Source: a virus
Taxonomy: Duplodnaviria > Heunggongvirae > Uroviricota > Caudoviricetes
Strand: one strand, 5' to 3'
Virus record (IMG/VR): IMGVR_UViG_3300045988_139913
DNA length: 38,677 nt
The notes under the pieces were generated by a model. The model did no database searches, was not told the origin of the DNA, and saw nothing but the letters and a program-made list of their open reading frames with translations. This document shows positions 3,712-28,117 of this stretch, one piece after another (the first letter of the stretch is position 1; each line of letters opens with the position of its first letter). The position numbers and the translations under genes are program-made.

Positions 3712-3765
3712 TCTGGATCTCCCGTTTAAAAGCGCAAATCATGCCATGCAGGCCGGAAACAACCA

Positions 3766-4736: not shown

Positions 4737-4738
4737 CG

Positions 4739-5272
4739 ATGATGCACTTAAAAAACATTACTGCTGGCAATCCTAAAACAAAAGAGCAATATCAGCTAAC
4801 AAAGCAATTTAACATCAAATGGCTTTATACAGAGGATGGAAAAAACTGGTATGAGGAACAAAAGAATTTCCAGTCTGATACGTTGAAAATGGTCTATGAC
4901 CATAACGGCGTTATTATTTGTATTGAAAAGGATGTTTCAGCAATTAATCCAGAAGGCGCAAGCGTCGTTGAATTACCTGATATTACAGCAAATCGCCGGG
5001 CTGATATTTCGGGTAAATGGATGTTCAAAGATGGTGCGGTGATAAAGCGAACTTATACCGGGGAAGAGCAGAGGCAGCAGGCAGAGAATGAAAAACAAAG
5101 CCTGTTGCAACTTGTCAGGGATAAAACCCAGCTATGGGACTCACAGCTACGGCTGGGCATCATTTCCGATGAGAATAAACAGAAATTAACCGAGTGGATG
5201 CTCTATGCGCAGAAAGTCGAATCCACAGACACCTCCAGCCTGCCGGTAACATTCCCCGAACAACCAGAATGA
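4739..5272 (+). CDS. U' tail-fibre assembly protein (alternate orientation set)
   Basis: 177 aa immediately after Sv'; tail-fibre assembly (Tfa)-like; convergent with U. Confidence 0.75.
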   Translation: MMHLKNITAGNPKTKEQYQLTKQFNIKWLYTEDGKNWYEEQKNFQSDTLKMVYDHNGVIICIEKDVSAINPEGASVVELPDITANRRADISGKWMFKDGAVIKRTYTGEEQRQQAENEKQSLLQLVRDKTQLWDSQLRLGIISDENKQKLTEWMLYAQKVESTDTSSLPVTFPEQPE

Positions 5273-5398
5273 GAAAGGCCCGTTATCGGGCCTTAATTTT
5301 ACTCAGGCTTTTGTGGCCATCCAGGCTTTTCCATATCCACATGACTGCGGAAAGCAAGGAAATACAAAATAACAAAAATGATAATAATTGTGCTGGTA

Positions 5399-5884
5399 TT
5401 ATAGCGTCGTTTTCACATCCTCTGCGCTGCTCTCTTTGCCGCTTTGTTCGTCTGGAACAGCGGGCCACTCAATATCCGTCGCGGTTGATGTATCAATACG
5501 CATAAGCAGCACACGATATTTTTTCCATTCAGCCAGTACAGTGATTTCTGCTTCTGTCGCCATCCCTGCGTCAACAGCATCCTGCCGCCAGGCAATTTCT
5601 GTGTTCGCAATCTCGGCTAAATCCTTTTTCTTCTGCTCTTTTAATGCGATTAACTGCTCTGTTGTTGGTTCTGATACATCAATCCATGTAGGGAAACCAG
5701 ATTCATCACGGCCTCTCTTTTTTCCCTCTGGCGGTCTTCCCGTAAACTCTTCATACATATCGTTTGTGACTGCCACCAAATCGTCAGGCCATGCGCCTGA
5801 TTTTTCATAGTCCGGTTTCATGGATTCAAAGAAAAACGTATTATTCCTGGCACTATAGAATATTTTACTGGACATGATTAACAC
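5399..5884 (-). CDS. U: U tail-fibre assembly protein (currently expressed set)
   Basis: 161 aa directly downstream of S, Tfa-like. Confidence 0.75.
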   Translation of the reverse strand: MLIMSSKIFYSARNNTFFFESMKPDYEKSGAWPDDLVAVTNDMYEEFTGRPPEGKKRGRDESGFPTWIDVSEPTTEQLIALKEQKKKDLAEIANTEIAWRQDAVDAGMATEAEITVLAEWKKYRVLLMRIDTSTATDIEWPAVPDEQSGKESSAEDVKTTL

Positions 5885-7065
5885 CCCACACCAATACAGA
5901 AGAATGGTTTAGAAACAGCAACCCCAGACCTTTCCATTAACGTGACCTGCATATCGCGATCATTTAATCTTTTAACACCCGCAATTGCACTTGCTATCGA
6001 GTCACCAGCAACGTTACAGGCTAACAAACCAAAGCAACGAACAGGCCAACCAACAGGAAACGGGGCAGATGCCCAGCCACTGGCATCAGTATTTCCCCAA
6101 CACCATTGAAAAATGATGCCATTTGGAAAACGTACCCAGCCAGCATCGGCCATCGCCTGGGTAAAATCACTGTTTTTTGTATACCCCTGAATGCTCCATC
6201 CATTCTGGGGAATTAACTGCCTGATATTTCCATCCAAAGTAAATGCAACCTTGCGGCGGTCAGAAATATTGCCTGCCGGAGACAATGCAACATCTATGTA
6301 GTTCGCGCCATTTTCCATTATTCCGCAAATGAGCGATGACATAATCGCTCCGCCAAATGAGAAATCGACTCCATTTGCACTTCCTGCAACCGTGCTCTTG
6401 TTTCTGATGTGAATACCAGAAAAGCCATTATCTTTTTCAATAAGTAATTCATTCCCAATTAACGAGAGAATGCCCTTGATAATCACATCACCGTTAACCA
6501 CCCCGCCATATGTTGATAACGCTTCCGAAGCTAATTTTACAGTTTCCTGTAAACCGAGGTTTTGGATAAACAGCGGCTTATTGGGAATATCTGCTCCGTT
6601 CCGGTCTTTTGCCAGACGGGCATTGGCATTATCCATCGCAATTTTCACCGCTTTTGCGGTGGCTGCCAGCGTTTCACTGGGGCTGTCAGTGGCACTGGTT
6701 AGCTGAACGAGTCCTTTTTTGTTCAGGCTGGCATCCCAGATATCCAGATTTTCACGTGCTGTACGCTGTGCTGATGCCCCGGCAGTTTTAATTTCGCTGA
6801 GGTTATTTTTTATCAGCAGCGCGTTATTGCTCATAATGGCTTTAATGGACAGTGCAAGCTGGTTTAATTTTGTTTTATCCGGTTGAATACCGGCTTCTTC
6901 CAGCGTGTTTAATAACTCCGCCTGCACAATATTAAACCAGTCCATGCCGGGCCATGTGATAACATTATTCCCGTCACCTTCTGAAAACCAGCGAACGATA
7001 GCACTACGCTGGGCGGATACGGGCGGCATGACGGTTACGCCGCTGTCGTTATCAATATAAAACAT
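5878..7065 (-). CDS. S: S tail fibre (Sc constant part ~6538..7065 fused to Sv variable part inside G)
   Basis: 395 aa; spans the gix site at ~6538-6561 (NLGLQETV); start overlaps stop of upstream gene (TAATG). Confidence 0.85.
   Translation of the reverse strand: MFYIDNDSGVTVMPPVSAQRSAIVRWFSEGDGNNVITWPGMDWFNIVQAELLNTLEEAGIQPDKTKLNQLALSIKAIMSNNALLIKNNLSEIKTAGASAQRTARENLDIWDASLNKKGLVQLTSATDSPSETLAATAKAVKIAMDNANARLAKDRNGADIPNKPLFIQNLGLQETVKLASEALSTYGGVVNGDVIIKGILSLIGNELLIEKDNGFSGIHIRNKSTVAGSANGVDFSFGGAIMSSLICGIMENGANYIDVALSPAGNISDRRKVAFTLDGNIRQLIPQNGWSIQGYTKNSDFTQAMADAGWVRFPNGIIFQWCWGNTDASGWASAPFPVGWPVRCFGLLACNVAGDSIASAIAGVKRLNDRDMQVTLMERSGVAVSKPFFCIGVGC
6535..6569. repeat. gix recombination site inside S (Sc/Sv junction)
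   Basis: TTTCCTGTAAACCGAGGTTTTGGATAA, inverted repeat of the site at 3766..3799. Confidence 0.85.
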
Positions 7066-7607
7066 TAGTTATCTCCGTCATGGTAAACAAATTTATAAAT
7101 CTGATGTGCGGGTTTATATTTCTCCAGTAAACATTCCAGCGCACCCGATTCATAAACACGTAACGGCGTCAGAACATTATCCAGCACCGTTGCGTTGCGA
7201 TAATTTTTAATACCGTAAATATTGACCTGCGTAACCCACTGGCCTTCTGTGGAATCCGTCAGCCTGACGGTAAAACCGTACTGCGCAGCCAGCCATTCAT
7301 AAAAGCGCCGACTCAGATTGCCGGTCATACGCATTTTATTCGCGGCAGCCCGCTGGCGTTCGGACAGGGTGCCGTTTTCGCTGGTACAGTCCGGCAACCC
7401 CAGAAATGATTCCCACTCCCCCAGATACCAGCGGGATGTGGACGGGAAACGCTCCCGCAGCATTTGCCGCGCATCATCCGCCGCAGTGGCAATCACGTCG
7501 CTGATGGCCTGCGCCAGCGCAGATAATTTGCTGTCGGGGCTTTTATTCCAGGCAAGCCCTGACGGCAGTAATTGCAGAAAGGCCGTCTGATAGGGTGTTA
7601 CAGCCAT
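7065..7607 (-). CDS. Tail protein (Mu gp48-like)
   Basis: 180 aa between baseplate R and fibre S, Mu gene order. Confidence 0.7.
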   Translation of the reverse strand: MAVTPYQTAFLQLLPSGLAWNKSPDSKLSALAQAISDVIATAADDARQMLRERFPSTSRWYLGEWESFLGLPDCTSENGTLSERQRAAANKMRMTGNLSRRFYEWLAAQYGFTVRLTDSTEGQWVTQVNIYGIKNYRNATVLDNVLTPLRVYESGALECLLEKYKPAHQIYKFVYHDGDN

Positions 7608-8680
7608 TCAATTGTCCCCGGTGTTAACAGTTCCGTATTCTCCGAACGCTGGATCTCTGTCGGGAAACGCACTTCAAAATCATCCAGACCGGTAACACCT
7701 GCCACCGCACGGATAATACGGGAGGGGGCAAGTGCGCCGCCCGGCGTCACCTCATTAAAAAACATGGTATTAATGGCGTGAGTAATAGCCTGTTTCAGTT
7801 CGGCTGTCTTCGGTGATATATAAATCCGTGGATTTACCGGCTTTGCCTTTGGCGCAAATACCGTGACATTTACACCATCAGGCTGCCCGACAATCAGGCC
7901 GGTTATCGGGTCAGTATGACCGGCGATATAATCCGCCACACGTTCCACATCTGCCGGTTGTGGAAAAATATTGATCCGGTTATCCATAACAAACGTCACC
8001 CCGACTGTGCCACCGCCTTTCCATGTCGGAAAACACCAGGCACGGGTAACGCCGCTGACTTCACGTGCCCAGCGGACGTAATCAAACTGATTACCGCCGA
8101 ACGGAGGATACTGGACACGATATTCCAGCCGTGACAGCAGCTCCGCTGCACTCTCAATATCTGCCCCACCGGAAAACCCTTTTACAGTGATGGCATCGGA
8201 AACAACACAGGCAACCGGGGTGATCAACGTTAAAAGGGTATTCTCACCGGTATTTCCTGCTTCACCGGCAGCCAGTGCGGTAACGGTAATTTCCGTCGTT
8301 CCTGCACGGTCAATCACAATGGCATCAGCCAGGCTGTAAACCACACCATCAGCACGCTGCCAGCGTGTACCGGCAGGAATGGTGGTCGCTGCCGATGTGG
8401 TGACAGTCAGCGGGCCGCTGGCGGCTGTCGCCTGTTTGCGGCGCACGCCCCAGAACCGGCAGTGCTCCAGCAACTCATCTTCATCTGCTGTCGACGGGAT
8501 AATCTGCCGTCCAACCCATGAAATATGCTCGTGACAACCGGCAGCAAGGCCTGCCTGAGCATAAGCAATGGCACTCAGCGTTTTTTCACGGGCCTGAGGC
8601 CAGCTACCCGGCAGGCGCTGTTCAATATTCTGTTCTGTACGGGCAATCAGCGATGATAATGTCGGTGGTGAATAAGCCAT
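7598..8680 (-). CDS. R: Baseplate J-like protein
   Basis: 360 aa; position and size as Mu gp47. Confidence 0.75.
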   Translation of the reverse strand: MAYSPPTLSSLIARTEQNIEQRLPGSWPQAREKTLSAIAYAQAGLAAGCHEHISWVGRQIIPSTADEDELLEHCRFWGVRRKQATAASGPLTVTTSAATTIPAGTRWQRADGVVYSLADAIVIDRAGTTEITVTALAAGEAGNTGENTLLTLITPVACVVSDAITVKGFSGGADIESAAELLSRLEYRVQYPPFGGNQFDYVRWAREVSGVTRAWCFPTWKGGGTVGVTFVMDNRINIFPQPADVERVADYIAGHTDPITGLIVGQPDGVNVTVFAPKAKPVNPRIYISPKTAELKQAITHAINTMFFNEVTPGGALAPSRIIRAVAGVTGLDDFEVRFPTEIQRSENTELLTPGTIEWL

Positions 8681-9118
8681 TTAAACCCCGTTAAATGCTG
8701 CTTTAAACTCATAAGGAATAACGGAACCATCCGGTAATGTCAGTGCAATGTAGAGGTATAACCAGCCCTGATGTAACTGTTCCACTCTGACGTTAATCGC
8801 ACTTACCCGGCCCGCTGTTTTCAGCCATTCCAGCGCCTCTTCGGCATACCCTCTGGCGCGTTCCAGCGTATCCGGTGTGGCTTTTTCACGTGATAACAGC
8901 CACAACCGCGAACCGATGGGGCGGTCGCGGTAACTGTCACCCCACCATCCACGGCGATCATCTGAACCATCCGGCAGCGTGTCAGAATCCAGCGCGCGCC
9001 GGTCGGTAAACAGGGAGATTGTCACATCGGTTGTCAGGCTGTCGTCGGTCAGCATATCAATGCCATCCTGTGCAATATCGCCGCGTCCGTTCGTCCAGAT
9101 AATGGCTAAATCGGTCAT
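8681..9118 (-). CDS. W: Baseplate protein (GPW/gp25-like)
   Basis: 145 aa; Mu order V-W-R. Confidence 0.75.
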   Translation of the reverse strand: MTDLAIIWTNGRGDIAQDGIDMLTDDSLTTDVTISLFTDRRALDSDTLPDGSDDRRGWWGDSYRDRPIGSRLWLLSREKATPDTLERARGYAEEALEWLKTAGRVSAINVRVEQLHQGWLYLYIALTLPDGSVIPYEFKAAFNGV

Positions 9119-9708
9119 TGCATTGGCCCCGTGGTTCCGCCGCTGTCGCCACGGTGGATATGCTTATCCGTCGATTTGCCATTGATGATGGCATCCGGGG
9201 CAGTAATATTGCTGTCGAACTGGCTTTTACCTTTAACGCCCAGACCTTTCTGGATCTCAACGTCGCCGGTAAACGTGGTTCTGGGTGTGTCAACTGTCAT
9301 ACTTTCATCAGCGTAAACCTCAACCGTTTTACAGGTAATGATGCAGCGTCCGTCCTTTGTCAGCCTGATACGATGCCCCTCGTGGTGGTAAATGCCTGCA
9401 TCACCCGGTTCAAGATTTGTCGGGCGGTAGCGGCGGTCTTCCACCACAACAGCAATCCCCTGATCACGTTGTGCGCCCACACAGGCAATCAGCGCCTCTG
9501 CTCCCGGCAGGGGAACGCTGAAATGCCCGTAATTTTGCAGGCGCTCCACTTCATCAGATTCCTCATCATCCAGCAGGCCGACCTGCAGGTTCTGAACCTT
9601 TCGCCCGTCGTTAATCACGTTAACAACAGCGCGCGCAAGCATCAGGCGCACACGACGCATCAGCGGCATCAGCAGGCGGTTCAGGGCGGAATCATTTACT
9701 CTTTCCAC
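9115..9708 (-). CDS. V: Baseplate assembly/spike protein
   Basis: 197 aa; Mu order Q-V-W. Confidence 0.75.
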   Translation of the reverse strand: MERVNDSALNRLLMPLMRRVRLMLARAVVNVINDGRKVQNLQVGLLDDEESDEVERLQNYGHFSVPLPGAEALIACVGAQRDQGIAVVVEDRRYRPTNLEPGDAGIYHHEGHRIRLTKDGRCIITCKTVEVYADESMTVDTPRTTFTGDVEIQKGLGVKGKSQFDSNITAPDAIINGKSTDKHIHRGDSGGTTGPMQ

Positions 9709-10835
9709 GGCGGCGTTTTCTCCGGGTGTCTGCGATAATAATCTTCAACCAGCGCATCAATACCGCCGTTACTGTCGTCGCCTTTCCTGTTTTTACGGTC
9801 GCTTTCAACCGGCACCAGAAAGCCTTCGCGTGGTGCAAGGCTGACGCGGGTTTTCAGCCCGTCCTGGTCATTCAGTATCAGGGTGACTTTGCTGACCAGT
9901 AATTCTGTGGTTTTGATGGCATATTTCGATGCATCAATAGTGACCAGCAGGTTCGGCATCCAGAGTTGCCCGTCCTTGCGTGTCCATCCGTCAATTTCTG
10001 CCTCAAAGGTGATGGATTTTGCCAGTCTGCGGCGTTGCTCACGCAGGGCGCGGGCCTGTGCATCCTTCGCCGTAATTTTGCTGTCGGCAATGATGATCAT
10101 CGGTCTGTAACGGGTCACATTACTGTCAGTGGCGGTCCCTTTCCGGGAGACGATACTTTTCGCATCAATATCATCACCCTCAGCACCGTTTGCGCGGGCA
10201 TACCCCTTGACGGTGTATTCGCTGAACCGGTCGCGGAAGTCTTCCTCAAAATCCAGTGTCAGCAGATTTTCTCCGAGAACCAGCTCATCAGTGGCTGTGC
10301 TGGCAGCCCGGCTGAATACCAGCTCTCCTGCGGCATTGCTGGTCATCAGTACACCGCGTGCGCGGGAGGCACGCACCAGCGCCTCATAAACGGTTTCTGA
10401 ATGGTCCAGCGTGAAGCCGGGAAAAGCTGCCGAACTTTCCTTATCGGAAAGCTCCCAGCGAACGGTAACGCCATAAGGAGCGCACAGGTCACGCGCAATC
10501 TGTTCCAGTGTGCGGTTTTTCCACTGCCCGCCACTGTAAACGGCAGCACAGTCAATCAGGTCAGCCGTTTTGTCACGTCCGGCGACAGTGATTTTCATAC
10601 TGTCAGCGGTCATCTGGCGTCGCCGTGAATCGATATAACCGGTGCAGACAATCTGCCCCTCGATTTCGAGCGTGAACTTCTTCCCCGGTGCCAGCCCGGA
10701 TAAATCCGTGCCCGGTGGCACGTTCACCCCCAGCTCAAAATATCCGGCTACGGATTCAATCGAGCGGGTGACAGAGACTGACGTCCAGCCGGTAAAAAGC
10801 CTGCCATCCGTTCGCAGCGTGACGGTATTACTCAT
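9696..10835 (-). CDS. Q: Baseplate hub / tail protein (Mu gp44-like)
   Basis: 379 aa downstream of P. Confidence 0.75.
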
Positions 10836-12315
10836 TAATCACCTCAATACTGACGCCACCGGGAACAAACAACGGGTTGCTGATACCGTTCCTGCGGGCC
10901 AGCCGTTGCCAGTTCCGGCTGTTTCCTGTGTAACGGTACAGGGCCACCATTGCAGGCATCGTCTCCGGCAGGCGGTGCGTTTCACTGCCCGCCAGTTGCA
11001 GCCCGCGTTTTTCCAGGTCGGCAACAACCAGCAGACGCAGTTGCGTAAGCTGAACGCTGTCTGTCGAAAAGCCCTGCTCAGATGCCGTCAGAATGACGGT
11101 ATCCAGTGCAGCCCCCAGCATGGCGGCTGTTTTTCCGATATCGGACACACTTTCAAATACCGGGGGCGTGGCTGTACCACTGTCTGAAAAGGATACCTGT
11201 GAAAAGCCGCCGTCCGGGGTTATGGCAGTTAACTGTAACTGTCCCTGTGTGACAGTAGCAGATGTGCTGCTGGCCCCGCTGGCTGTGCCGGTTGTGGTGG
11301 ACGGGGCATCCAGTACAGGTGCACGGGCGGCATTATCCATCCGGCGACTGAAATCCAGTGCCGCAGTCAGTGCCTGACTGGCAGCTTCTGCCCGGTATGT
11401 CTGCGCCGCTGCCAGCATGACGTAGTTCAGTGTGGCAATATTTTTTTCTGCAACCGGACTGTTGTACGAGGTTGTGATTGTCCCCTGTCTGCCTGCGGTG
11501 GCGGCATGGCGAGGTTCGAATCGCTGCGCCAGACGGTTCCATGTGGAAAATGCTGTCCGGGTATCGCATAACGATGAAACGCCGGACAGCGCCCCCATCA
11601 GCGAGGAGGCCAGCATGGCAGGCTGGTTAATCAGGCTGGTCACAGAGCCTTTCATCGCAGAAAGCGATCCCATCAGACCGCTGACAGTCTGCGTAACCCC
11701 CAGATTGTCCACCGCATCACTGATATCATCGATGACACCGGTTACAGCTTCCATCACGGCGGTTGCCGCCGCAGTGCCATCTTTTACGGTTTGCCAGACA
11801 GAGGACAGCGTATCTCCCAGAGAACCGGTTACAGCAACGGCCTGTGCAGGTACGGCTGCACTGGTGTCTGTCTCTGCGTCCGGGGCAGTATCCTGCAACG
11901 ACGGATAAACGGTAACGGTGAACGCGTAATAATTCAGTTCATCCGCTTTAGTGCGGCATTCCCATGAATCCACCATGACGTCCACAGTGCCGAAATCAGG
12001 ATGTACCAGCTCACCGCTACCCGGAGCATCAAGAGCATCCATCAGCGCACCCGCTTCATCTCTGGCTGTTTCTGCGTTGCTGTTCAGAATGCAGGCGCTG
12101 AATGTACGGGAGCGAAGCTTTTTCCCCAGGTCATTGACGCCGCCGGTATCACGTAACGGGTACTCGCGTTTAACCAGGCGACGTCCGCCAGCCTGTTTTT
12201 GCTCCTCGATGACGAGAAACGGCACGTTACGGAACGTGCCTTTGCCGGTTGTTTTCTTACCACCGCTGATTTTATCCCGGACAGCATTAACGGCATTTAA
12301 AGCATCTTCAAACAT
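10828..12315 (-). CDS. P: Tail/DNA-circularisation protein (Mu gp43-like)
   Basis: 495 aa immediately after tape-measure gene. Confidence 0.75.
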
Positions 12316-14392
12316 GGTTTTCCCAGCCTGTAATGTAGTTATCGCCCGCGTAAATATTCAGCCCCATACCATCCTCGGTGACACGGGAACTGGCCAGACG
12401 TAACCCCTCGCCAAGTTCGACGCGCAGCGAGGCTTCCGCATTCACTTTTTGTTCCTGCGGTTCCTTATCCGGGGCCGTCCATTTCTGATACAGGTCGGTT
12501 ACAAAACCGCCCAGATACTCCCCGGCGACACTGCCCAGCGTGGCACCGGCAACCGTACCCAGCGGTCCGGCAAGGCTGCCAACGGCACCGCCGAGCCATG
12601 CACCGGCTGTACTGCCAATTGCACCTGCTTTTTCATGGGTTGACGCCTGCTCATCCATCAGGACGGGGGCAAGCTGGAGTGCCCCCATTACCGGGCCACC
12701 CAGACGTGACAACGCACGACCGGCACCTTTCCCCATCCAGCCCAGCGCCCCGGCACCTTTTGTCACAACCCGACCGATCGCACTGCCTGCAAGTTTGTTT
12801 CCGATACCGGAAAACCACCCGCCAACAGCACGCCCGGCATCAGCCAGCTTTCCGACCGTTCCCGTAACCAGTTGCCCGGCAGCACTGCCTGCAAGCCTGC
12901 TCAGAAGACCGGATTTACCGGGTAAAGGTAATGGTGCAGGCCGTGCTGTTACCGGTACGCCGGGTGGGGGTAATGCCAGTACAGGGCGTGGTGCAGGTAA
13001 TGCCAGCGGCTGTGGCCCGGACAGCAATAACGGCTGGCGGGGTAACAGCGGGGCCATTCTTCCGCCGCTCCGTCCGCGACGACCGCCGCCACTCCCGTAG
13101 CCACCAAATCCACGGGGCCAGTTGATGACAAACACACGCTGAATGCCGATACCCTGCAACAGCGTCTCAGACGTCATGGCATCCGGGACCGGCAGACCTG
13201 CCTGCCCACGTTTGCGGTTTCGCATCCAGCGCCACATACGACGCCCGGTTTTAAACGGATAACTGGCAACCTGCCATGAGGGTTTTGCCACGGCCCAGCC
13301 TGCTCTCAGGGCTTTATTGGCAAGCCAGACAGACACCAGAACAGCAGCCAGTTTTTTCAGGCTGACAATATTCTGGTCAACCCATGCCAGCGCATCTTTA
13401 CCCGGTTTCAGCCAGCGCCATAATTCCTGCGCCGCGATTTTTACCGTTCTGAACGTGGTCAGAAATTTCTGACCAATGTTTTCTGCCAGTGCGTCAAGTT
13501 CCCCGGATTTATCCGCCATGTCGTGCCAGTTAAGCACCCGGCGCATCTCGTTCTTGATTTCTTCAAAGGGGCCGCTGTTTGCCACCTTTATGCGAAATTC
13601 AAGCAGGTTAGCTTCCATCTGGGCGAACATCCCGTCCCAGGAGTTCATCGCACTGGCCTGTGCACCTTTTGACTGTTCTGACAGCGTTCTGAATACCGTC
13701 AGAATGGATTTCAGACCCAGCTTGCCTTTTTCACCTTGTTTGCGGATATCCTTAACGTCTTTACCCAGTGCATCCGCCAGCGTCTGGTAAACGTTAATAC
13801 CGTAACCGGTCAGCAGGTTGGCATCCGCCGCTGTGATTTGCTGGCGGGCAAACATCTGTTTCAGTTGCAGTGAGGCACCCTGTGCAGTTGGTAAATCCCA
13901 GCCGTGCATGGCCCCCTGATCCTGCAACATGGTGATGAACTGTTTCGTCTGTTCATCCGTCATGCCGAAGCCTTTCGACGAACGGATCTCATCAAGAACA
14001 CCACTCAGCCCCCACGTGGTGTCCTTCGCGTTCTGCTTCGCCCAGGCCATCATGGCCTGCGCTCTGACCTTATCGCCGTGATACAGCGAGTTCATGGCGA
14101 TGATCTGCTGCTCACGCTGGGCGGCTGCACCAATAAACAGTTTATTGGCGGTGTAACCCACGCCAGCGATACCCAGCGCCCCGGCTGACAGCATTCGGAA
14201 TGTACGGGTTGACAGAGAACCCATTCTGTCAATGGCACCAGAAACGCGCACAACCTCCATACGCAGGGCACGAAGGGAACTTTGTCCGCTACGGGACAGG
14301 GCGTTTATCTGGTTCGAATACTGGCGGGAACGCCGGGAAAGATTGCCATTAAGATCAATAATGACAGACGCCTTTAAGCGTTTCCCGGTCAT
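12308..14392 (-). CDS. N: Tail tape-measure protein
   Basis: 694 aa, longest tail gene, Gly/Pro-rich low-complexity core, located between chaperone-like Y and P. Confidence 0.85.
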
Positions 14393-14536
14393 AGAGATTT
14401 CCTGATTTAACGGTGATATTGAGAGAGGGTTTTAGCCTGCTGGCAGTGCCGGAAAAAGCGGGACAGCGGAAGGGATAAGGCCCATTCCGGGCCACTTTTC
14501 AGAATAACGCCAATCGCTGTCGCCGCTTTCTCAATA

Positions 14537-14971
14537 TCATTCCGGCACCGCAGCCACTCGCCCCCGTTCTTGCGTCAGCGATGCCGCCACAGCCATGTCG
14601 TACATTTCTGTGGCCAGCGACAGACGCTGGAAGTCATCGACAGACAGCTTACGAATCAGCGCCATCGACAACGGGCCTTTGATGCAGCCCACGCTGGCAA
14701 TCTGTCGGCGCAGCATTTCCAGTCCCATCCGGGACGGGGAACTGACCAGCACCGGACCTTCCTTGCTCATTACCAGCTTTTCAGCAGCCGCCTGTGCATC
14801 AATCATATCGCCTGCGGTCAGTTCACGCAGTGTCACGTCATACTGCATTTCAGTCTCGTCACCGGTGCCGAACGGCAGGCCGTCTTTCAGTTTCAGCACG
14901 CCGGACTGAATTTCTGCCACAATGCTGTCATGCAGTTCCTGTGCTTCAGGACCTAAATTCATTTCGTCCAT
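14537..14971 (-). CDS. Y: Tail assembly chaperone-like protein (Mu gp41-like)
   Basis: 144 aa, between tail tube and tape measure. Confidence 0.7.
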   Translation of the reverse strand: MDEMNLGPEAQELHDSIVAEIQSGVLKLKDGLPFGTGDETEMQYDVTLRELTAGDMIDAQAAAEKLVMSKEGPVLVSSPSRMGLEMLRRQIASVGCIKGPLSMALIRKLSVDDFQRLSLATEMYDMAVAASLTQERGRVAAVPE

Positions 14972-14980
14972 TGTTTCCCC

Positions 14981-15337
14981 TTATGCAATGCGTTTGCTTT
15001 GTTTTGCCATCAGTACCAGCGAAATTTCGCCGCCGTCGTTTTTCGGTTCATCTGCCTGCCAGGCATTCGCCATCATCCAGGTTTCACCGGTGTCTGCCTG
15101 AAACTCTGCCGTGATATTTTCCCAGCCGATGATTTCATCCAGACCGATATCACCACCGCCCGGAATTTTGCATTCCAGCTTTGCGGCACGTGGTTTACCT
15201 TTCCAGCCATAAACCCGCGAGCCGGTCACTTCTTCACGGGTGATGCCGGAAGGTGTGAAGGAGGCCCCTTCCATCGTTTCAAGCTCCATGCCATTGACAC
15301 GGATGAACGCCACCCCCTGACGCTGATTTCCAGCCAT
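14981..15337 (-). CDS. M: Tail tube protein
   Basis: 118 aa directly after sheath gene. Confidence 0.8.
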   Translation of the reverse strand: MAGNQRQGVAFIRVNGMELETMEGASFTPSGITREEVTGSRVYGWKGKPRAAKLECKIPGGGDIGLDEIIGWENITAEFQADTGETWMMANAWQADEPKNDGGEISLVLMAKQSKRIA

Positions 15338-15346
15338 AAATGCTCC

Positions 15347-16834
15347 TTACAGAATGAACTGAACTTGTGCCGCGAAAATGCGGAACTGGTTAATCAGATT
15401 CGGGCCGCACAGCACATCAAGACGGTCTTTGTCGTCCTTGTTACGTGCCACATACAGCTCCTCTTTGAACGTGTCGAAATCCTCGACCAGTCCGGCGTTT
15501 TCCCATTCTTCAAACAGTGCCAGCAGTTCCGTTTTGATCACGGATGGCGTCACCACGGCCTGACCGGTGGCAAAGCGGGTGCCATCACTTGCCAGCTTGT
15601 AGTTCGGGAATTTCTGCGTGATGCGGGTTCGCAGCGAATAACGCAGATAACTCAGCGTGGCGATGGTATTCACGTTCAGATAAGACGGATCACTGTCACC
15701 GTACTTGTTTGTGCGGTACATCGTGATCATGCGTTCAATCTGCATTTCACCACCATCATTCACGTTAAACGTGGAGATGCCGTCAAACAGCAGCGCATTA
15801 CGTTCTGACCAGGTAAAACGATCCCCCACCGCAGGCGGCATTCTTCCGGGCAACGTCAGCGTCTGGAGCGGACGCGCCGGGTCGATGGAAAGCGCCTGGC
15901 TGGCAACGGCACACAGTGTGGCGGCGTACAGATATGACGGTTCCGGTGCACCGGCAATCCCCATACAGGAGATCAGATGGTCATTACGACTGACACCAAA
16001 CGTAGAAATATCCCCATACGTGCCGGACAGCACTGTCACGGCAAAACCATCAGCCTGATTGACCGGTCCCCAGCGTTCCTGCAATTCAGTGCGTAACAGA
16101 TTCAGGTTCGGTTCATCGGTATAGGGCATCACAATATATTTGTATTGCAGATCGCCCATTCCCGCGATACTTGCGCTGATATCCGGGTTGCCATTTTTCC
16201 CGGAGGCGGCTTTGAATGCCGTGATAATCCCGTAAGGGGTGGTTTCACCCGCGTAATAGTTCCAGCGCACGTCCACGGCAGATAATGCACCCGTAAATTT
16301 TGCACTCAGAACCACATCTGCATGGGTGTCATCATCTCCGCTGTCTGCGCGAACTTCTGCCGTCACCGGTAAATCCGGCTGGCCTTTGATTCGGGCAACC
16401 AGCAGGTCAGCCAGCGCCGCTCCCGTTGCACCTGCTGCGACAGATACCGCCAGTCGCTGACCGGCAATGTAAGTCACAAGCGAGCCGTTTTCGCCTGCCG
16501 TTCCTGACAGTGAAATTTCACCGACAGCAGCATTACCGGTGCCGTTCCCCTGCGGAATACACCACAGCTCCGCCACGCGGTTAGCGTTCAGGAATGCATC
16601 TGCCATCAGTGCCAGCATGGAACCCTGACCAAACGCCGCACTGGCCTGTGAGCCGGAACGGATACGGACAGGCACGTTTGGTGCCGCACTGGCTTTACTT
16701 CCGCTTTGCCCGAACATCAGCACGCGCTGACGGGGTGCCGGTGTTCCGCTGACGGCATTACTGTTATCAAATTCGATATACGTCAGAGGAACGCGAACAT
16801 CTGACGGGATCGCGTTAAATGAAATATCGCTCAT
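15347..16834 (-). CDS. L: Contractile tail sheath protein
   Basis: 495 aa; size and position as Mu gpL. Confidence 0.85.
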
Positions 16835-17037
16835 TTCGATTTACTCCGTTTTTTCGGCGCAGCGTCGGTATCATCCGCCGTGTTTTCGGTGTTCCCGACT
16901 TCAACCACATCACCGGCTGCAAGGCGACGTATCCAGAAACTGTTACGGGGCTTTTCTTCTCCCTCCGGAGCCAGTAATTTCATCGTGAGCGGGTCACGGA
17001 TGGCTTTTCCCGCTGCGGGTTTAATTTTCAGCATCAT
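16831..17037 (-). CDS. Small protein (Mu gp38-like)
   Basis: 68 aa, translationally coupled between K and L. Confidence 0.55.
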
Positions 17038-17569
17038 GATCCTTTTCCTGATTCACATTGATATGTGCGGCAAATTCCGGGGTTTCGTCCGGGAATTTCC
17101 AGGTCTGCCAGTGACGCTCGTAATCATCCAGCGAATCCATGTCCACCACGGACGGCAGCGGGGTAGTGCCACTGAACAGAACGCCGTAAAGCACCACACC
17201 GGCATTGATACGGTTGTCGTCACAAAGATTTCTGACCTGCGTCAGTCTCATCCCGGTGGTCGGGCCAAACGTCTGACCGTTAACACCGGCAATCAGTCGC
17301 TCCACAATCTGATAAATACCGGGCCGGTTTACCTGTTCCCCGTTCAGCAACTCCGCCACGACAAAAAATGCCCAGCGACTTTCAACTTCCCGACGCGTAC
17401 GCCCCTCACCACAGCCCATCCATGCCAGAAATACCGATGGCGGGGCCAGAAAGAGACGGTGCACATCCTCGTTAGTCCATGTGCCGGTAAGGGGTTCCAC
17501 CTGCCGCAGGGTTGCCCCAAACAACTCACGAACGCGCGCCAGCAGTGCGGCTTCGGTTTCTTCCAGCAT
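17021..17569 (-). CDS. K: Head-tail completion/neck protein (Mu gp37-like)
   Basis: 182 aa, Mu order J-K. Confidence 0.7.
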   Translation of the reverse strand: MLEETEAALLARVRELFGATLRQVEPLTGTWTNEDVHRLFLAPPSVFLAWMGCGEGRTRREVESRWAFFVVAELLNGEQVNRPGIYQIVERLIAGVNGQTFGPTTGMRLTQVRNLCDDNRINAGVVLYGVLFSGTTPLPSVVDMDSLDDYERHWQTWKFPDETPEFAAHINVNQEKDHDAEN

Positions 17570-17994
17570 CAGATAAACCCCTTCTGTTTTCGTGAGAAGA
17601 CCGGCGCGTCAGACTGCACCTGCACAAGGTTTTCACCATCCGGCGAGGCTGCCGTCCTGCTTTCCACGCCGGGATCTGTTTTGCCATCGCGCACCTGTTC
17701 CAGCCAGCGCACTGTGTCCCTGTAGGCAGCGGTGATCTGCTCGGTGGGTTGTGATTCATTCAGATAAAACCAGGCCACCACGCAACACTGCCGTTTCAGC
17801 AGTGAGGGGACGACGGTAAGCGGCAGAACAAAGCGCGCGGCGAGATAGCCATCAATAAAGGCCGAGGCATCTGCCAGTGCCTGTTCTGCCACGGCATCAT
17901 CCGGCTGCCCGTCCGCTGTTTTAGGGCGGGTGAGAATATCCAGCCGCGTACGTGTATAGCGGGCGCACAGGTCATTTACCGTCGCGTAATTCAT
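17569..17994 (-). CDS. J: Head completion protein (Mu gp36-like)
   Basis: 141 aa, Mu order. Confidence 0.7.
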   Translation of the reverse strand: MNYATVNDLCARYTRTRLDILTRPKTADGQPDDAVAEQALADASAFIDGYLAARFVLPLTVVPSLLKRQCCVVAWFYLNESQPTEQITAAYRDTVRWLEQVRDGKTDPGVESRTAASPDGENLVQVQSDAPVFSRKQKGFI

Positions 17995-18401
17995 GCATCC
18001 GCCTCAGCCAGCGCCGCTTTGATTTGCGCACTGCTCACCGGTTCCCCCAGCGCCGCACTGACGGCTTTCACTTTGGGTTCTCCCCCTGCGGTAAAGTGCT
18101 CCGGGTTTGCCTTATCCAGACCGGCAACGGTCGCACGGATACGGGTATTCAGATCGCCCACACCCAGAACGTCCAGCCCCCCAGCCTCAGCGAGCGTTTC
18201 TGCTGACGATGCAGATACCACAGACAGCACGCTGTCGGCACGAATGATCGCCAGTTGTTCTTCGGTGACTTCCACGGTGTTTTCACCACGTGTAAAGGCG
18301 ATTCCGGCGCGGCGGTAGACCGGACGAAGGCATTTAATAATCGCCGTGCAAGTGATGCGAGAAGTGTCCAGCCGTTGTGAATTAAGCGAAGTGCCTGACA
18401 T
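17991..18401 (-). CDS. Conserved head-region protein (Mu gp35-like)
   Basis: 136 aa, strong RBS AAGGAGGAG, directly after major head gene. Confidence 0.65.
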   Translation of the reverse strand: MSGTSLNSQRLDTSRITCTAIIKCLRPVYRRAGIAFTRGENTVEVTEEQLAIIRADSVLSVVSASSAETLAEAGGLDVLGVGDLNTRIRATVAGLDKANPEHFTAGGEPKVKAVSAALGEPVSSAQIKAALAEADA

Positions 18402-18433
18402 AACACATGCTCCTCCTTTTCCTTTAAATCAGG

Positions 18434-18461
18434 TTAAAAGGCGGCCTGAACCGCCTTTTAA
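18434..18461 (-). terminator. Perfect palindromic stem-loop immediately downstream of major head gene T
   Basis: TTAAAAGGCGG-CCTGAA-CCGCCTTTTAA in the 66-bp T/gp35 gap. Confidence 0.45.
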
Positions 18462-18467
18462 CGACGG

Positions 18468-19385
18468 TTACAGGTAGTCAGCGACAACCAGTTGCAGCTT
18501 GCCCTTCATCTCGTTGGAGACGGTGGTATTGCCATCCGCGAACAGTTCACGGTTAAGCAGTTGCTCTGCGGCTTTTTCCAGTCCGACCGGTACAACGATA
18601 TGCGTCGGCTTCAGGCCCAGCTTCTTACCGCCATCACCTTCAAAAGAGCGCATCAGTTGCCAGCCCTTCCAGAGGTTATCCAGCGTCAGATCGCCTTTTA
18701 TCGCGACAGCCATCTGCCAGAAGCCGTAACCGGCAGCACGGCGGGCGCTGGCACCAAACAGGAACTCGTTATCCATAAAAACGTGGTCGTCATCGATACG
18801 GGTACGTGCGACCAGCTCCGGTTTGCGGCGCTCCTGGAAAATCAGCGGTTTGACTGCGCGGGAGCAGTCCAGCAGATAGAACGGCAGACCGCTGAAGCTG
18901 TCCTGCTCAACGATGTTGGAGGTATTAACCGCGCTGCCCGTGCCGTCCACATTCGGATATACCGGATGCTCCTTGTCGAAGAAGTTCTGACCGTCATAGC
19001 ACGGCTGGGTAAAGCCATCTTTCAGAAGTTTAAAAATCAGCTCATCCGGCTGAACTGCCGCAGAACGGCCCATCTCCTGAAAAATCGGCGCATAAATACC
19101 CAGATTGTCATCCTCGAAGTCATCACGGGAAATACCCACGGTGCCTTCAAACGTTTTATTGGCGATGGAGTAGCCATGCGCTTCCATTTGCTGAATGGTT
19201 CGCTTACCCACCCATTCTTTCAGGGTCGGGAATTTACCCAGCCAGCCATAGGTATTACTGCGGGTGGAAGAGTTCACCACCATTGCAATTTTGTTGTACT
19301 GCGACGGGGCGTCTTCAAGACCGCCCTGAAAATCCTTACGCCAGGAGGTCATCAGGGCTTTAATGGATGCCGGGGTGACAATCAT
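18468..19385 (-). CDS. T: Major head (capsid) protein
   Basis: 305 aa; size and position as Mu gpT. Confidence 0.85.
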   Translation of the reverse strand: MIVTPASIKALMTSWRKDFQGGLEDAPSQYNKIAMVVNSSTRSNTYGWLGKFPTLKEWVGKRTIQQMEAHGYSIANKTFEGTVGISRDDFEDDNLGIYAPIFQEMGRSAAVQPDELIFKLLKDGFTQPCYDGQNFFDKEHPVYPNVDGTGSAVNTSNIVEQDSFSGLPFYLLDCSRAVKPLIFQERRKPELVARTRIDDDHVFMDNEFLFGASARRAAGYGFWQMAVAIKGDLTLDNLWKGWQLMRSFEGDGGKKLGLKPTHIVVPVGLEKAAEQLLNRELFADGNTTVSNEMKGKLQLVVADYL

Positions 19386-20467
19386 TTTTCTTGTTCCTGT
19401 TTCATTTTCAGATACTCAGCCTCTGTAATGCCGAGCGCCTTCACTGCTGCCTGTTCATCAGCAGACAGCACCGCCACCGCCGTTTTTTCCTGCGACGGGA
19501 TTTTCGCTGTGGTGGTCTGCATGGCAGATAACGCAGCGATAGGCTGTTTTTTCTCAAGCTGTGCCGACAGTGCCGCCACGCCAATCTGACCGCCAAGCTG
19601 TTCCAGATAGGTACGTTCGCTTTTGAAAATGCGGCCTTCCTGTTCCGCCTTGTCCAGAACGGCGCTCAGGCTGGCTGTGGCGCTTTGTGCAGTCGCCTGT
19701 GCCAGTTCATCACGCAGGGCGTTGTAGCTTTCCACCGGGACGTATTTCGTCAGGTCAACGGCGGCTTTCTGTGCCTTTTCCAGTTCGGCAGACAACGCCG
19801 CCACTTTTCCGGCATCTGTTTCGAGCGCATCAAGCGCACTCAGGGCCGCGCTGGCCTGTTCATCGGTGATGTCTGCATTTTCGGGGACCGTCACCCCAAG
19901 ACGCGCAAGCAGCTTGCGCAGCGTTTCATTCATGGGTTTGTTCTCCTGTTGAAGGATGTCGGGAAGGTCTGCCGCCAGTGCGGTCAGCTTTTTCATGCCG
20001 GTGGCACCGGGGTCATTGGTCAGCGCAGCAAGGCGGATTTGCAGCACTGCACCGGTGGCGGTGTCATACGGAAAAACCGCAGAGAGATAACCAAATTCGC
20101 CGTCATCGATGCGCTGCTGGGCCGCCGCCGTCCAGCGTGGGTGGATAAATAACCCTTCACCTTCACGCCACTGCATTTCATCGGCGTTAAACCAGCCAGC
20201 CGCGACGAGTTGTTCCGGGGGTAATCCTTTGTCCTTACGTAGCTGGTTATGCTCGTAATCAATCAGCACGTCCTGGTTGAGCGCGCGAACGCCTTCAACC
20301 AGACGCCCGGCAATCTCACCGTCGATGAACCACCCCTGACCGTCTGTCACATCAAACGGACGACCATCACGGGCACTGAAATGACCGGCAGGCAATAGCT
20401 GGCACCAGCCGTCATCGTCAATGGACAGCGCACTCAGTGCGGCAATGCCAATCGCGTGTTTTTTCAT
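19382..20467 (-). CDS. I: Head protease/scaffold protein I (scaffold Z expected as nested C-terminal product)
   Basis: 361 aa, Ala/Glu-rich coiled-coil C-terminus, precedes T. Confidence 0.8.
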   Translation of the reverse strand: MKKHAIGIAALSALSIDDDGWCQLLPAGHFSARDGRPFDVTDGQGWFIDGEIAGRLVEGVRALNQDVLIDYEHNQLRKDKGLPPEQLVAAGWFNADEMQWREGEGLFIHPRWTAAAQQRIDDGEFGYLSAVFPYDTATGAVLQIRLAALTNDPGATGMKKLTALAADLPDILQQENKPMNETLRKLLARLGVTVPENADITDEQASAALSALDALETDAGKVAALSAELEKAQKAAVDLTKYVPVESYNALRDELAQATAQSATASLSAVLDKAEQEGRIFKSERTYLEQLGGQIGVAALSAQLEKKQPIAALSAMQTTTAKIPSQEKTAVAVLSADEQAAVKALGITEAEYLKMKQEQEK

Positions 20468-20663
20468 GTCCTGCTGCTCATCATGGTTTGTGAGCAGTCA
20501 GTTTGCGGGAGGTGCGGGAAAATCTGGGGTTATGCTATTTGAGTAATGGAGAAAGAAAGTGGAAGGAAGATAAAACGGGATTCATACACCGTTAAATACC
20601 GGTTTAAAAATCCCGTGGCGCGTTTTAAAAAATCTGTGCGGCTGATTTCATGTCTGATTCAGT
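20468..20663 (-). promoter_or_regulatory. G-I intergenic region: candidate late promoter P_I and position of the Mu central strong gyrase site
   Basis: Only ~200-bp non-coding gap in the late region, ~18.0 kb from the left end; contains GCATAACCCC (minus orientation) ~60 bp upstream of I. Confidence 0.45.
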
Positions 20664-21134
20664 TTATTGCCTCAGAGCGGCGCTGACGCGTTTTCTGATG
20701 GCATCAAAAATTTCCTGTTCCCCGGTCTTATCCAGCCCCATATAAGGACGCGCAGGAACGCCTGCCGGGCGGGGTGCCATATCGGGTGTACCGCCCCACT
20801 GATGAATGGCAGCATAAATTTTTGGCGAACCAATAAGGGCATAATCCTGTCCATAATCGGTGGTAATGCTGCGTGCCAGATCGCCATGCAGGGTAAGGAT
20901 ACTGCCCGGAACAAAACCATGATCCTGACGCCATGCCTGCCACGAATCGCTCCACGCTTCCCAGCCTTTCCCTGTATCCGGGTCTGCCTGCCGTTCAAAT
21001 GCCTGTTCCGTGGATGACAGCAGCGCCGCAGCCATCACACGGGGAATGGCGCGGTCACGTGTAACGGTTCCCAGTTCATCCAGTGCAAGCTGAATACGTC
21101 GCACATCCACGGCAACGTTCATATCAAGACTCAC
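20664..21134 (-). CDS. G: Virion morphogenesis protein G
   Basis: 156 aa, Mu order F-G. Confidence 0.75.
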   Translation of the reverse strand: MSLDMNVAVDVRRIQLALDELGTVTRDRAIPRVMAAALLSSTEQAFERQADPDTGKGWEAWSDSWQAWRQDHGFVPGSILTLHGDLARSITTDYGQDYALIGSPKIYAAIHQWGGTPDMAPRPAGVPARPYMGLDKTGEQEIFDAIRKRVSAALRQ

Positions 21135-22486
21135 TTATTCACCTCCACATGCCCCTCCAGTATGTCAATCATCCCGTCAGCAATCGCGGCTTCAAGCGAC
21201 TGTGCAGATACGCGGCTGATACTGACCAGCACATCCGCCCGGTCATTCTGTTTGCTGACAGCCTGCGATGTTCTGACCACAACTTTTGCAGTGCCGTCGC
21301 GGGTTGCCACAACATACAGCAACTGGTGGTTCTCCCTGTCCCACAATACCGCCTGTGGTTTTGCCATCAGCGACGGCAGACGCTGTAAATCCTCCGGTTT
21401 CAGGGCGGCATCAGCAGTGGTCGCCAGACTTTTCCCGTTCATCACAAGCAGACGGGCTGGCATATTCCCGGTGCGCTGATATACGGCCTCCGCCACGGAT
21501 CCCGTCATAAAACCCAGCGTACGGACCTCATGTCCGGCCCGGCGTGATTTCGCCAGACGTTTAAGCCAGAGGGAAAAAGCAAGCTGACGCTCCCGGCTGT
21601 TATTCAGCGTCTGAACAACCTGCTCACGCAGCTGCGCGTCACGAACTTCCACCAGTTTTCGAATCAGTGCCTGATCCGTACCAAATGCCGCCGAACCGGG
21701 GTTATATGACCAGCCCACATCTGGCGTCATTTTTACCCGACCGTTGTCAAACGTGGTTGACGATGTGCGGAAAATCTCTCCGGTGCTTTCATCCGTACCG
21801 GCATCCACTTCGCGGGTATTCATGAATGACGTACCATAACTGACCTGTAGCCCCAGTTCTTTCATGCGGGCCGCAGACAGCGCCCGGACGCGACAGCGGC
21901 AGTTCCAGCCATTGGGCGGGTAATGCGTCTGCCAGAAAATGTCGTCATACCGGAAAACCATATTGTGCAGCCGCGCATGTTCCGGGCGTGTTCTGCCATC
22001 CATAACGGCAACGTACTGCCAGTACGGGTACAAATCGGCGGTATTCATCATCTGCGCATAACGTCCTGCCCCATACGCCGTACGGGTATTGACGTTATAA
22101 ATGGTTGCCAGACGACGCGGACTGCCCAGCTCGATTACCTTTGCGTTTCCGTCTGCATCCACGATGATTTGTTTTCCCCACCATCCGAGTTTTTGCAGCC
22201 GGGGGGCAAGTGTGCGGGTAAATTCCTCACGGGTGATGCCTTCACTGACAGCCCGCTCCACTTCCTCACGGATTGTGGTCAGTACATCCATCCGGGTGGC
22301 TTTGGCAACGGTAAAGGCGCAGGCGTGCGCGTCTGCCAGTTGTTCGTACCAGTTCCAGGTGATGTTGTAACCTTTGGCGCGGAAATACGCGACAGCCTCC
22401 TTTGGCGGGAGGCGTGCGGCATACGCCAGATCAATGGTCTGCTGCGGCATCCAGACGCCCCCATATATCGGCAACAAAAATGGCAC
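21131..22486 (-). CDS. F: Minor head/morphogenesis protein F
   Basis: 451 aa; ORF-track start is GTG, alternative ATG at 22450; overlaps 3' end of portal gene. Confidence 0.75.
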   Translation of the reverse strand: MPFLLPIYGGVWMPQQTIDLAYAARLPPKEAVAYFRAKGYNITWNWYEQLADAHACAFTVAKATRMDVLTTIREEVERAVSEGITREEFTRTLAPRLQKLGWWGKQIIVDADGNAKVIELGSPRRLATIYNVNTRTAYGAGRYAQMMNTADLYPYWQYVAVMDGRTRPEHARLHNMVFRYDDIFWQTHYPPNGWNCRCRVRALSAARMKELGLQVSYGTSFMNTREVDAGTDESTGEIFRTSSTTFDNGRVKMTPDVGWSYNPGSAAFGTDQALIRKLVEVRDAQLREQVVQTLNNSRERQLAFSLWLKRLAKSRRAGHEVRTLGFMTGSVAEAVYQRTGNMPARLLVMNGKSLATTADAALKPEDLQRLPSLMAKPQAVLWDRENHQLLYVVATRDGTAKVVVRTSQAVSKQNDRADVLVSISRVSAQSLEAAIADGMIDILEGHVEVNK

Positions 22487-23969
22487 GGGTCAGCATGTCG
22501 ATAAGTTCTGCATCATCCATCTGCGGATATAATGAAGCGGCTTTGTTCATGGCGGCTTCCGGGCCATCTTTCAGCACAGAAAGAATGACTGGTTTCAGCA
22601 GGGGATCAACCGAACGCTGCCAGTCTTCCGGTGAGACGCCCATCCGGTCGATATCATCCTCCTGCGGGATATCTTCAGCGGATAATGCGGCCTCTTTCTG
22701 CGGACCGTTATCCATGACGACCGGTTGAGCAGTAAACACGGCTTCATCACCGACCGGCTGTGGAATATGGAGTTTTTCCTGTATCCATGAGACCGGAATA
22801 CGCATTCCCGCCGCCAGTTTCGGAATGGCGTCAGACAGTGCCGTAATATCACCCGCTTCACTGGTATCAAATACAATGCCCGGCAGGCGGTTAATATCAA
22901 TGGTGCTGTCACTGTTCAGTGCCAGCAGGGGATAAATCAGGTCACGGTTAATACTGCGGGCAAGCTGGCCCACATCCGCGTTACGGATTTCCCGGCGAAC
23001 CTCATCATGCACTTCACCCAGCGACCGTGCACCTTTATCGCCAGCCTCTGTGGTCAGGGTGCCGCCCAGAATGGCTTTTGAAATCGCTTTTTCTGCCCAG
23101 CCAATCATCGCCATAAAGGGGTCTGACTGACCATCTGCGGCGCTCTGAAAATCCAGCGTCATCCCCATCGGAATAATGCCACCGGCACGTCGCCCGATAT
23201 CCATCACGGCCTGCATCAGCGTGGCTTTCTCGCGGTTCGTGGAGCCGGTCGGATATTTACCGACGCGCATGGGGAGTCCGTAAATTTCCAGAAACTCTGC
23301 AAAATCACGCACGGAATAGTTTTTAAAAATAAAAGGCCAGATAAGCGTGCGCACAAGGCCATTGGTGCCGACATACCCGGTGCGGGATTTGGCCCGGTGC
23401 ATAAACCAGCCGAACGGTTGCAGCTCCAGCCCGTGATAAGACGTATCACGCAGACGTAATTCGTTCAGATTATCGGGGTTCGCGCAGAACAGCGCCGGAT
23501 CGCGATGATGCAGCGCCACCGGCACGCGCATTTTGCCCAGCCAGCCCCATTCAATCTCCTGCATGGAATAACCCTTGAGAATGGCATCACCGGCATCAAA
23601 CAGGGCATCTTCAAACCACGCCGCATCATGCAGATATTCATTCAGCATGTCGGCGTCTTTTTTCTCCTGTGCGCTGGCATCACGTGCCGGAGCGATGCGC
23701 CATTCCAGCGCCTGAATGGCAAGGCGGCGCTTGCTCAGTTCGGAAAAAAGGTGGGTGTCCTTTTCTTCCATATCAAAGGCCAGGTCAGCCTGTGCTGTCA
23801 GATCACCGCGTTCGGCATCACGCAGCATCTGCGCGGCCCGGTTCGGCGTCACACCACTGGAAGGATGCTCCTGCGTGCGCTTCATGACCATTGCCAGCTC
23901 ATCGCTGCGGGTCTGCATTTCATCGTCAAAATCAAACGGCTGCCCGGAAATATCCAGAATACGGCCCAT
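22431..23969 (-). CDS. H: Portal protein (Mu gpH-like)
   Basis: 512 aa directly downstream of large terminase. Confidence 0.8.
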   Translation of the reverse strand: MGRILDISGQPFDFDDEMQTRSDELAMVMKRTQEHPSSGVTPNRAAQMLRDAERGDLTAQADLAFDMEEKDTHLFSELSKRRLAIQALEWRIAPARDASAQEKKDADMLNEYLHDAAWFEDALFDAGDAILKGYSMQEIEWGWLGKMRVPVALHHRDPALFCANPDNLNELRLRDTSYHGLELQPFGWFMHRAKSRTGYVGTNGLVRTLIWPFIFKNYSVRDFAEFLEIYGLPMRVGKYPTGSTNREKATLMQAVMDIGRRAGGIIPMGMTLDFQSAADGQSDPFMAMIGWAEKAISKAILGGTLTTEAGDKGARSLGEVHDEVRREIRNADVGQLARSINRDLIYPLLALNSDSTIDINRLPGIVFDTSEAGDITALSDAIPKLAAGMRIPVSWIQEKLHIPQPVGDEAVFTAQPVVMDNGPQKEAALSAEDIPQEDDIDRMGVSPEDWQRSVDPLLKPVILSVLKDGPEAAMNKAASLYPQMDDAELIDMLTRAIFVADIWGRLDAAADH

Positions 23970-25624: not shown

Positions 25625-25631
25625 AACCCTC

Positions 25632-28109: not shown

Positions 28110-28117
28110 TGACAGGA

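Follow-up and report, generated by a model that had tools for sequence, protein, structure and literature searches.

An open frame with no start codon, located between tail chaperone and tape-measure genes of a Mu/D108-type prophage, is the known −2 frameshift extension FS-gp41 of phage Mu, with a candidate hairpin stimulator downstream

The window analysed here, which is the whole stretch of 38,677 nucleotides of viral DNA, raises the question of what is encoded between two tail genes that appear to be separated by 144 bp. The original prediction had claimed that this gap is not empty, in that an open stretch of 58 codons crosses it in the +1 frame relative to the upstream chaperone gene, and had proposed that the stretch is a product of programmed frameshifting. 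The window contains a complete Mu/D108-type prophage (about 1605..38581), with the phage genes on the minus strand and an early region resembling that of D108. The left end of the prophage is also D108-like, and the match to the Mu reference begins only from about base 1560 onward. Non-phage DNA flanks the prophage, with 96 bp beyond the left (c) end (window 38582..38677) and about 1.6 kb beyond the right one (1..1604). Over the 700 bases round the finding, identity is 100% to Escherichia virus Mu_3F6 and 99% to phage Mu, and the genes and frames concerned are as follows.

16834..15347, minus strand: tail sheath gene (ORF list).
14981..15337, minus strand: tail tube protein gene gp40 (M), which lies upstream of gp41 and marks the conserved gene order (ORF list; AF083977.1 Mu_40).
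14537..14971, minus strand: gp41, tail assembly chaperone; 144 aa in the zero frame, stop codon TGA at 14539..14537 (ORF list; Pfam; PHROG; AF083977.1 Mu_41).
14410..14574, minus strand: start-less +1-frame open stretch of 55 sense codons, flanked by TGA at 14577..14575 and TAA at 14409..14407.
14536..14393, minus strand: 144-bp gap between gp41 and the tape-measure ATG (ORF list).
12308..14392, minus strand: tape-measure protein gene gp42, 694 aa, ATG at 14392 (ORF list; AF083977.1 Mu_42).
10828..12315, minus strand: gene N, DNA circularization protein Mu_43, 495 aa (ORF list; AF083977.1, "also known as N").

The gp41 protein matches the Pfam family Gp41_Mu (PF23746) with E=8e-34 and 116 bits against a cut-off of 27, and it also matches PHROG 508, 'tail assembly chaperone'. 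The names Y and N, which had been given to the chaperone and the tape measure, should be corrected: the chaperone is gp41, the tape measure is gp42, and N is the gene after the tape measure. The ribosome-binding site of gp42 is AGGA at about 14403..14400 (AF083977.1 carries an RBS annotation). The tape-measure protein is four residues (ENHV; window 12308..12319) longer at its C-terminus than that of the Mu reference, and this results in an 8-nt overlap with the start of N, versus a 4-nt gap in the Mu reference.

Along the minus strand the order is tube (15337..14981), gp41 (14971..14537), the extension down to 14407 and the tape measure from 14392, so that two overlapping frames sit between the tail tube and tape-measure genes. 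The ORF coordinates bear out that the gap is occupied by an open stretch in the +1 frame, and the stretch has indeed no start codon of its own, ATG, GTG and TTG being all absent from its codons. It was said to begin about 12 codons before the chaperone stop and to end about 14 nt before the tape-measure start; the measured overlap with the 3' end of gp41 is 35 nt, and the stretch finishes exactly 14 nt short of the ATG at 14392. Only the length had been overstated: the frame is open as described, but it has 55 sense codons.

Openness by itself was rejected as evidence, since in the window, which is rich in GC, a length of 55 codons or more is reached by about 11% of all the stop-to-stop runs. 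The open frame is lifted above chance because it is conserved in relatives and shows a characteristic pattern of variability by codon position, and a chance ORF is ruled out by this conservation. A −1 reading was also considered and rejected: the −1 frame continues for 12 codons past the stop in the window and for 1–90 codons in relatives, with no conservation.

The identity of the frame was clarified by comparison with database entries. In GenBank AF083977.1, a joined CDS, Mu_56, annotated as 'tail assembly chaperone', spans the Mu counterpart of 14971..14407, and it bears the note 'verified -2 translational frameshift in PMID 15469818'. The amino-acid sequences of gp41 and of the +1-frame extension in the window are identical to those of Mu. 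The reconstructed full frameshift CDS is complement join(14971..14558, 14559..14407), encoding 188 aa, and it contains the following part.

14407..14559, minus strand: FS-gp41 extension after the −2 shift, 50 codons and TAA (reconstruction).

The 188-aa product expected from a tandem slip (…ERG-R-EWLRC…) is an exact match to UIW09302.1, 'tail assembly chaperone [Escherichia phage Mu]', and a variant differing by one residue (…ERG-G-EWLRC…) is UniProt P0DJY4, 'Probable tail assembly protein FS-gp41'. The difference is at the junction residue, codon 138 (14558..14560), where GenBank UIW09302.1 has …ERG-R-EWL… versus …ERG-G-EWL… in UniProt P0DJY4; the event is represented by a different slip model in each database. 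Against PHROG 12783 the extension gives a match with E=8e-29, and no Pfam family was matched by it. A search of the PDB gave no relative of gp41 or FS-gp41.

The start-less frame is thus the −2 frameshift extension FS-gp41 of phage Mu, published and annotated already, and its recovery here is a rediscovery. The proposal of a frameshift-extended tail assembly chaperone agrees with the documented gp41/FS-gp41 pair (Mu_41, Mu_56; P0DJY4): the amino acids of chaperone and extension, the slippery octamer, the gene order and the spacing to the tape measure are all the same in Mu and in the window. The locus differs from that of Mu in a few synonymous nucleotides, in belonging to a Mu/D108-hybrid prophage and in the four additional residues of its tape-measure protein. 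The anatomy of the locus and the identity of its proteins with those of Mu were established here. The −2 programmed frameshift of Mu gp41 was reportedly described by Xu, Hendrix and Duda in 2004. The unusual direction, +1/−2, which the original prediction had also called for, is given as −2 in the note of AF083977.1 and in papers on Mu, and for this direction we rely on that note and on the papers citing the Mu work. We consider it very probable that the programmed −2 ribosomal frameshift of phage Mu gp41/FS-gp41 explains the locus.

The extension is treated differently among annotated genomes. In D108 (GQ357916.1; L002:948-1094) it is annotated as a separate 48-aa protein, 41.5, starting at CTG; PHROG 12783 groups stand-alone extension calls under 'unknown function'; and in Mu_3F6 (LR595867.1) the extension region carries no annotation.

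Such records bring up the explanation that the small frame is a separate gene ('gp41.5' in D108), with independent translation from a non-canonical CUG codon. This explanation can refer to the annotation of 41.5 in GQ357916.1 with its 48 aa and CTG start, to the stand-alone calls collected in PHROG 12783, and to a G run 7 nt upstream of the CUG, which could mimic a Shine-Dalgarno sequence. However, the frame is without ATG, GTG or TTG, other clades keep the in-frame GGGGCGA but not the CUG, and the GenBank note on Mu reports the fusion product as verified. On these grounds, independent translation of the small frame is very improbable.

According to the proposed mechanism of the −2 frameshift, the shift takes place at an octamer near the end of gp41.

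14558..14565, minus strand: slippery site GG GGG CGA; zero-frame codons cGG-GGG-CGA, corresponding to R136 G137 R138 (sequence; PMC3458567).

The absence of a canonical slippery heptamer had been pointed out, and it is correct that no heptamer of the type X XXY YYZ is present; the implication that there is no slippery site does not hold, because GG GGG CGA occupies 14565..14558. Most ribosomes would read CGG-GGG-CGA and stop at the UGA (14539..14537), producing the 144-aa chaperone gp41, and a few of them, about 2.2% according to the published value for Mu, would slip back by two nucleotides. At the moment of the slip, the P site would hold tRNA-Gly paired with GGG and the A site tRNA-Arg(ICG) paired with CGA, and after it tRNA-Gly would re-pair with GGG and tRNA-Arg with GGC. 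Decoding would then resume at GAG (14559..14557) and proceed through 50 codons to the TAA (14409..14407), giving the 188-aa FS-gp41. The −2 direction, the tandem slip and the efficiency of about 2.2% are taken from what the literature on Mu reports: −2 frameshifting is used in Mu (PMC5009743), it occurs as tandem −2 slippage on GG GGG CGA with tRNA-Arg ICG in the A site (PMC3458567), and Mu was the sole natural −2 case known at the time, with an efficiency of about 2.2% (PMC3498833). A slip involving the P site only, which gives …ERG-G-EWL…, was replaced by the tandem slip giving …ERG-R-EWL… on the basis of PMC3458567 and the GenBank protein match.

We examined the conservation of the site and the frame in relatives gathered by searching viral contigs and a set of genomes with one representative per species, with gp41 and an alignment of 30 homologues. 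A scan of the viral contigs with a two-sequence protein alignment gave no new loci, and the 30-sequence alignment was needed. The resulting sample consists of 97 distinct loci with 37–100% protein identity, and those from named genomes span Enterobacterales, Pasteurellaceae, Vibrionaceae, Aeromonas, Rheinheimera, Marinomonas, Shewanella and Bilophila. The same +1 frame is open, in the same arrangement, in 94 of the 97; in the other three (L027, L029 and L031) indels break or fuse the chaperone frame itself. Stops interrupting the extended frame in close relatives would have spoken against a frameshift product, and none was found in the 94 distinct loci, out of 97, whose gp41 frame is intact. 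The shift had been called tentative, a caution no longer needed for an event that is published and database-annotated for Mu and whose frame stays open in relatives.

The slippery site is also deeply conserved. The motif [C/A]GGGGGCGA, with CGA in the gp41 frame, is present in 91 of the 97 distinct loci, and the other intact loci keep GGGGCGA, which is invariant in all of 83 frame-intact distinct loci compared (83/83). Elsewhere in the same genes, CGA accounts for 8% of Arg codons and GGG for 17% of Gly codons. One locus has seven Gs at the site. Two loci with an intact frame have four Gs: L030:1570-1578 (Edwardsiella anguillarum; UCG GGG CGA) and L091:1564-1572 (CAG GGG CGA). A full-text literature search for 'GGGGGCGA' returned a sole match, an unrelated ribosome-binding site in a table of Burkholderia phages.

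In relatives, the +1 frame reaches 21–47 codons past the zero-frame stop; counted from the slippery site, the extension is 44–51 aa long and ends between −23 and +15 nt from the tape-measure start. It retains a recognisable protein pattern, e.g., …PL(S/R)R(L/F)…, and within the Mu clade the variability of the gap, sorted by codon position of the extension frame, follows the order 3>1>2, with 32, 25 and 16 variable columns of 37, respectively. The deep conservation established here means that the site and the frame are under strong purifying selection.

The same comparison bears on a +1 frameshift, in which slow decoding of CGA in the A site would leave time for P-site tRNA-Gly to move from GGG to GGC, producing 187 aa with the junction …ERG/EWL…. 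In favour of such a shift, GGG CGA is the never-varying part of the site, and CGA is seldom used for Arg in these genes (8%). With only four Gs in L030 and L091, P-site re-pairing at −2 would be imperfect, having a first-position mismatch, and these relatives weaken −2 re-pairing and not the +1 shift; moreover, the sequence by itself fits +1 as well as −2. Against the +1 shift, the fifth G, which is needless for it, is kept in 92 of 94 intact loci, the GenBank note states that −2 was verified, and three independent papers say −2. Both database products are of 188 aa, and an exact-sequence look-up found no 187-aa +1-type product on record for Mu. A +1 shift is accordingly judged improbable, and the −2 shift is retained.

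Some assemblies have GGGG in place of GGGGG, and in these gp41 and the extension are fused into one ORF of 187–199 aa (L029:1599-1740, L027:1581-1722; P0001, P0002, P0006 and P0047). L027 is also one G short in another G run, which lies about 70 nt further downstream. These fused assemblies look like homopolymer sequencing errors or decaying prophages and not like a constitutive fusion.

Slippage of RNA polymerase on the G5 run, by which one G is lost or two are gained, would also join the two frames, and a homopolymer run is certainly present. The GGGG assemblies with a fused 187-aa ORF (P0001, P0002, P0047 and L029) indicate that the run is indel-prone at least during sequencing. A run of five Gs is, however, short for productive polymerase slippage, and the invariance of the CGA that follows it would be left unexplained. 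Since the literature also assigns the event to the ribosome (PMC5009743, PMC3458567), transcriptional slippage is scarcely credible as the source of the extended product.

We looked for elements that might stimulate the −2 shift, and folding of the RNA downstream of the site gave an extended hairpin with the following parts.

14439..14554, minus strand: extended RNA hairpin of 116 nt, starting 3 nt after the CGA codon, candidate frameshift stimulator (folding, covariation).
14554..14541 pairing with 14453..14439, minus strand: outer helix of the hairpin (13 bp).
14530..14515 pairing with 14468..14454, minus strand: middle helix.
14493..14489 pairing with 14483..14479, minus strand: apical stem.

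The 161-nt stretch folds with a minimum free energy (MFE) of −73.2 kcal/mol (z=−3.24 relative to dinucleotide shuffles). In a ranking of 3856 overlapping 120-nt windows of the minus strand, the hairpin is second by MFE and first after GC correction, with a residual of −21 kcal/mol. Other 120-nt windows of the minus strand that are unusually stable for their GC content are at about 37540..37660 and 38240..38360 (early/left-end region), at about 9430..9550, and at about 12490..12610 within the tape-measure gene.

An alignment of 23 distinct Mu-clade sequences was used for covariation. In these 23 sequences, 89% of the hairpin cells are paired, versus 38–48% when the partners are slid, and compensatory changes occur at 8 pairs in 26 cells, versus 9.0±2.3 cells in shuffles, and none of 500 shuffles attained as many. 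The outer helix and the apical stem, but not the middle helix, are also predicted independently by RNAalifold. The invariant core of the stem starts 7 nt after CGA. The hairpin lies where frameshift stimulators normally sit, and the folding and covariation together suggest that it is probably a stimulator of the shift; placed 3 nt after CGA, the 116-nt structure would promote slippage of the ribosome. A search of Rfam at the gathering threshold found no family in the window, and near the site there were two hits at chance level only. A description of the hairpin was not found in the accessible literature and may already stand in the primary 2004 paper; the covarying hairpin may be a new addition to the known frameshift.

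In the other clades, unrelated stems start 5–7 nt after CGA, some of them with compensatory changes. In most non-Mu clades, a Shine-Dalgarno-like element (e.g., GAGGAGGTGG in L128, AAGGAG, or CAGGTGG) is present 7–12 nt upstream of GGGGGCGA; it can be seen in L128:1511-1528, L057, L042, L096 and other non-Mu loci, within the 18 nt ending 3 nt before the G run. No such upstream element was seen in the Mu clade, which has the long 3' hairpin. A Brenneria/Pluralibacter-type clade has a second hairpin of 11 bp with compensatory changes, located about 72 nt after the slip site and about 20 nt before the tape-measure start (L055:1611-1641; the same columns in L056, L057, L105 and L122–L136; alignment A6, columns 81–111).

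For −2 shifts, spacers 1–2 nt shorter than the −1 optimum are favoured (PMC3458567). One may speculate that the hairpin is a dedicated −2 stimulator of Mu whose short spacer favours −2 over −1, and that stimulators are interchangeable across the family, the Mu clade having the long 3' hairpin and the others the upstream Shine-Dalgarno-like element with a shorter 3' stem; we regard this extended view as possible but rather doubtful.

The arrangement can be compared with several known systems. It is like lambda G/GT in that overlapping frames lie between the major tail and tape-measure genes and a low-level shift occurs near the end of the chaperone gene, and it differs from lambda in that there is no detectable sequence similarity, that Mu shifts −2 on GG GGG CGA and that the Mu extension has only 50 aa. 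Lambda G/GT shifts −1 on G GGA AAG. The two systems are also alike in having a short and an extended chaperone form in a fixed ratio (PMC5009743), and in lambda the chaperone part binds the tape measure and the extension binds the tube protein (PMC5009743). By analogy with lambda, the gp41 part shared by both forms would bind the tape-measure protein, and the 50-aa extension would recruit the tail-tube protein; neither form would be part of the finished virion, and tail assembly would require them in a fixed ratio.

Phage P2, with its E/E+E' pair, is likewise a contractile-tail phage with the genes in the same position, and the Pfam family Phage_TAC_7 ('E, or 41 or 14') weakly matches gp41, with 23.8 bits under a cut-off of 25. 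The P2 E+E' extension is of similar size to that of Mu. The P2 pair differs from that of Mu in its −1 shift, the efficiency of which is 2–3-fold above that of lambda (PMC5009743). Regarding stimulators, E. coli dnaX, which has an upstream Shine-Dalgarno-like element and a downstream hairpin, is similar to the non-Mu clades with a Shine-Dalgarno-like element 7–12 nt upstream, and, 3–7 nt past the site, a stem is present in every gp41-family clade examined. The Mu clade differs from dnaX in being without the upstream element, and dnaX shifts −1 on A AAA AAG. Outside bacteria and their phages, nsp2TF of arteriviruses uses a different slippery site and a protein-dependent stimulator. It shares with Mu the −2 direction reaching the +1 frame, but it belongs to a eukaryotic RNA virus and has an efficiency of about 20% (PMC5009743).

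Among natural programmed frameshifts of the −2 type, that of Mu gp41 was described first, and for years no other was known. Its recovery from raw sequence shows that recoding is detectable by a scan of this kind and adds nothing new on the event itself. Many genome annotations miss the fusion or treat the extension as a separate protein, as is the case for D108 gp41.5, PHROG 12783 and Mu_3F6. For the phage, the shift would set the ratio of the two chaperone forms needed for a tail of the right length, and the hairpin, together with the Shine-Dalgarno-like elements of the other clades, provides a testable natural set of stimulators for the selection of −2 versus −1.
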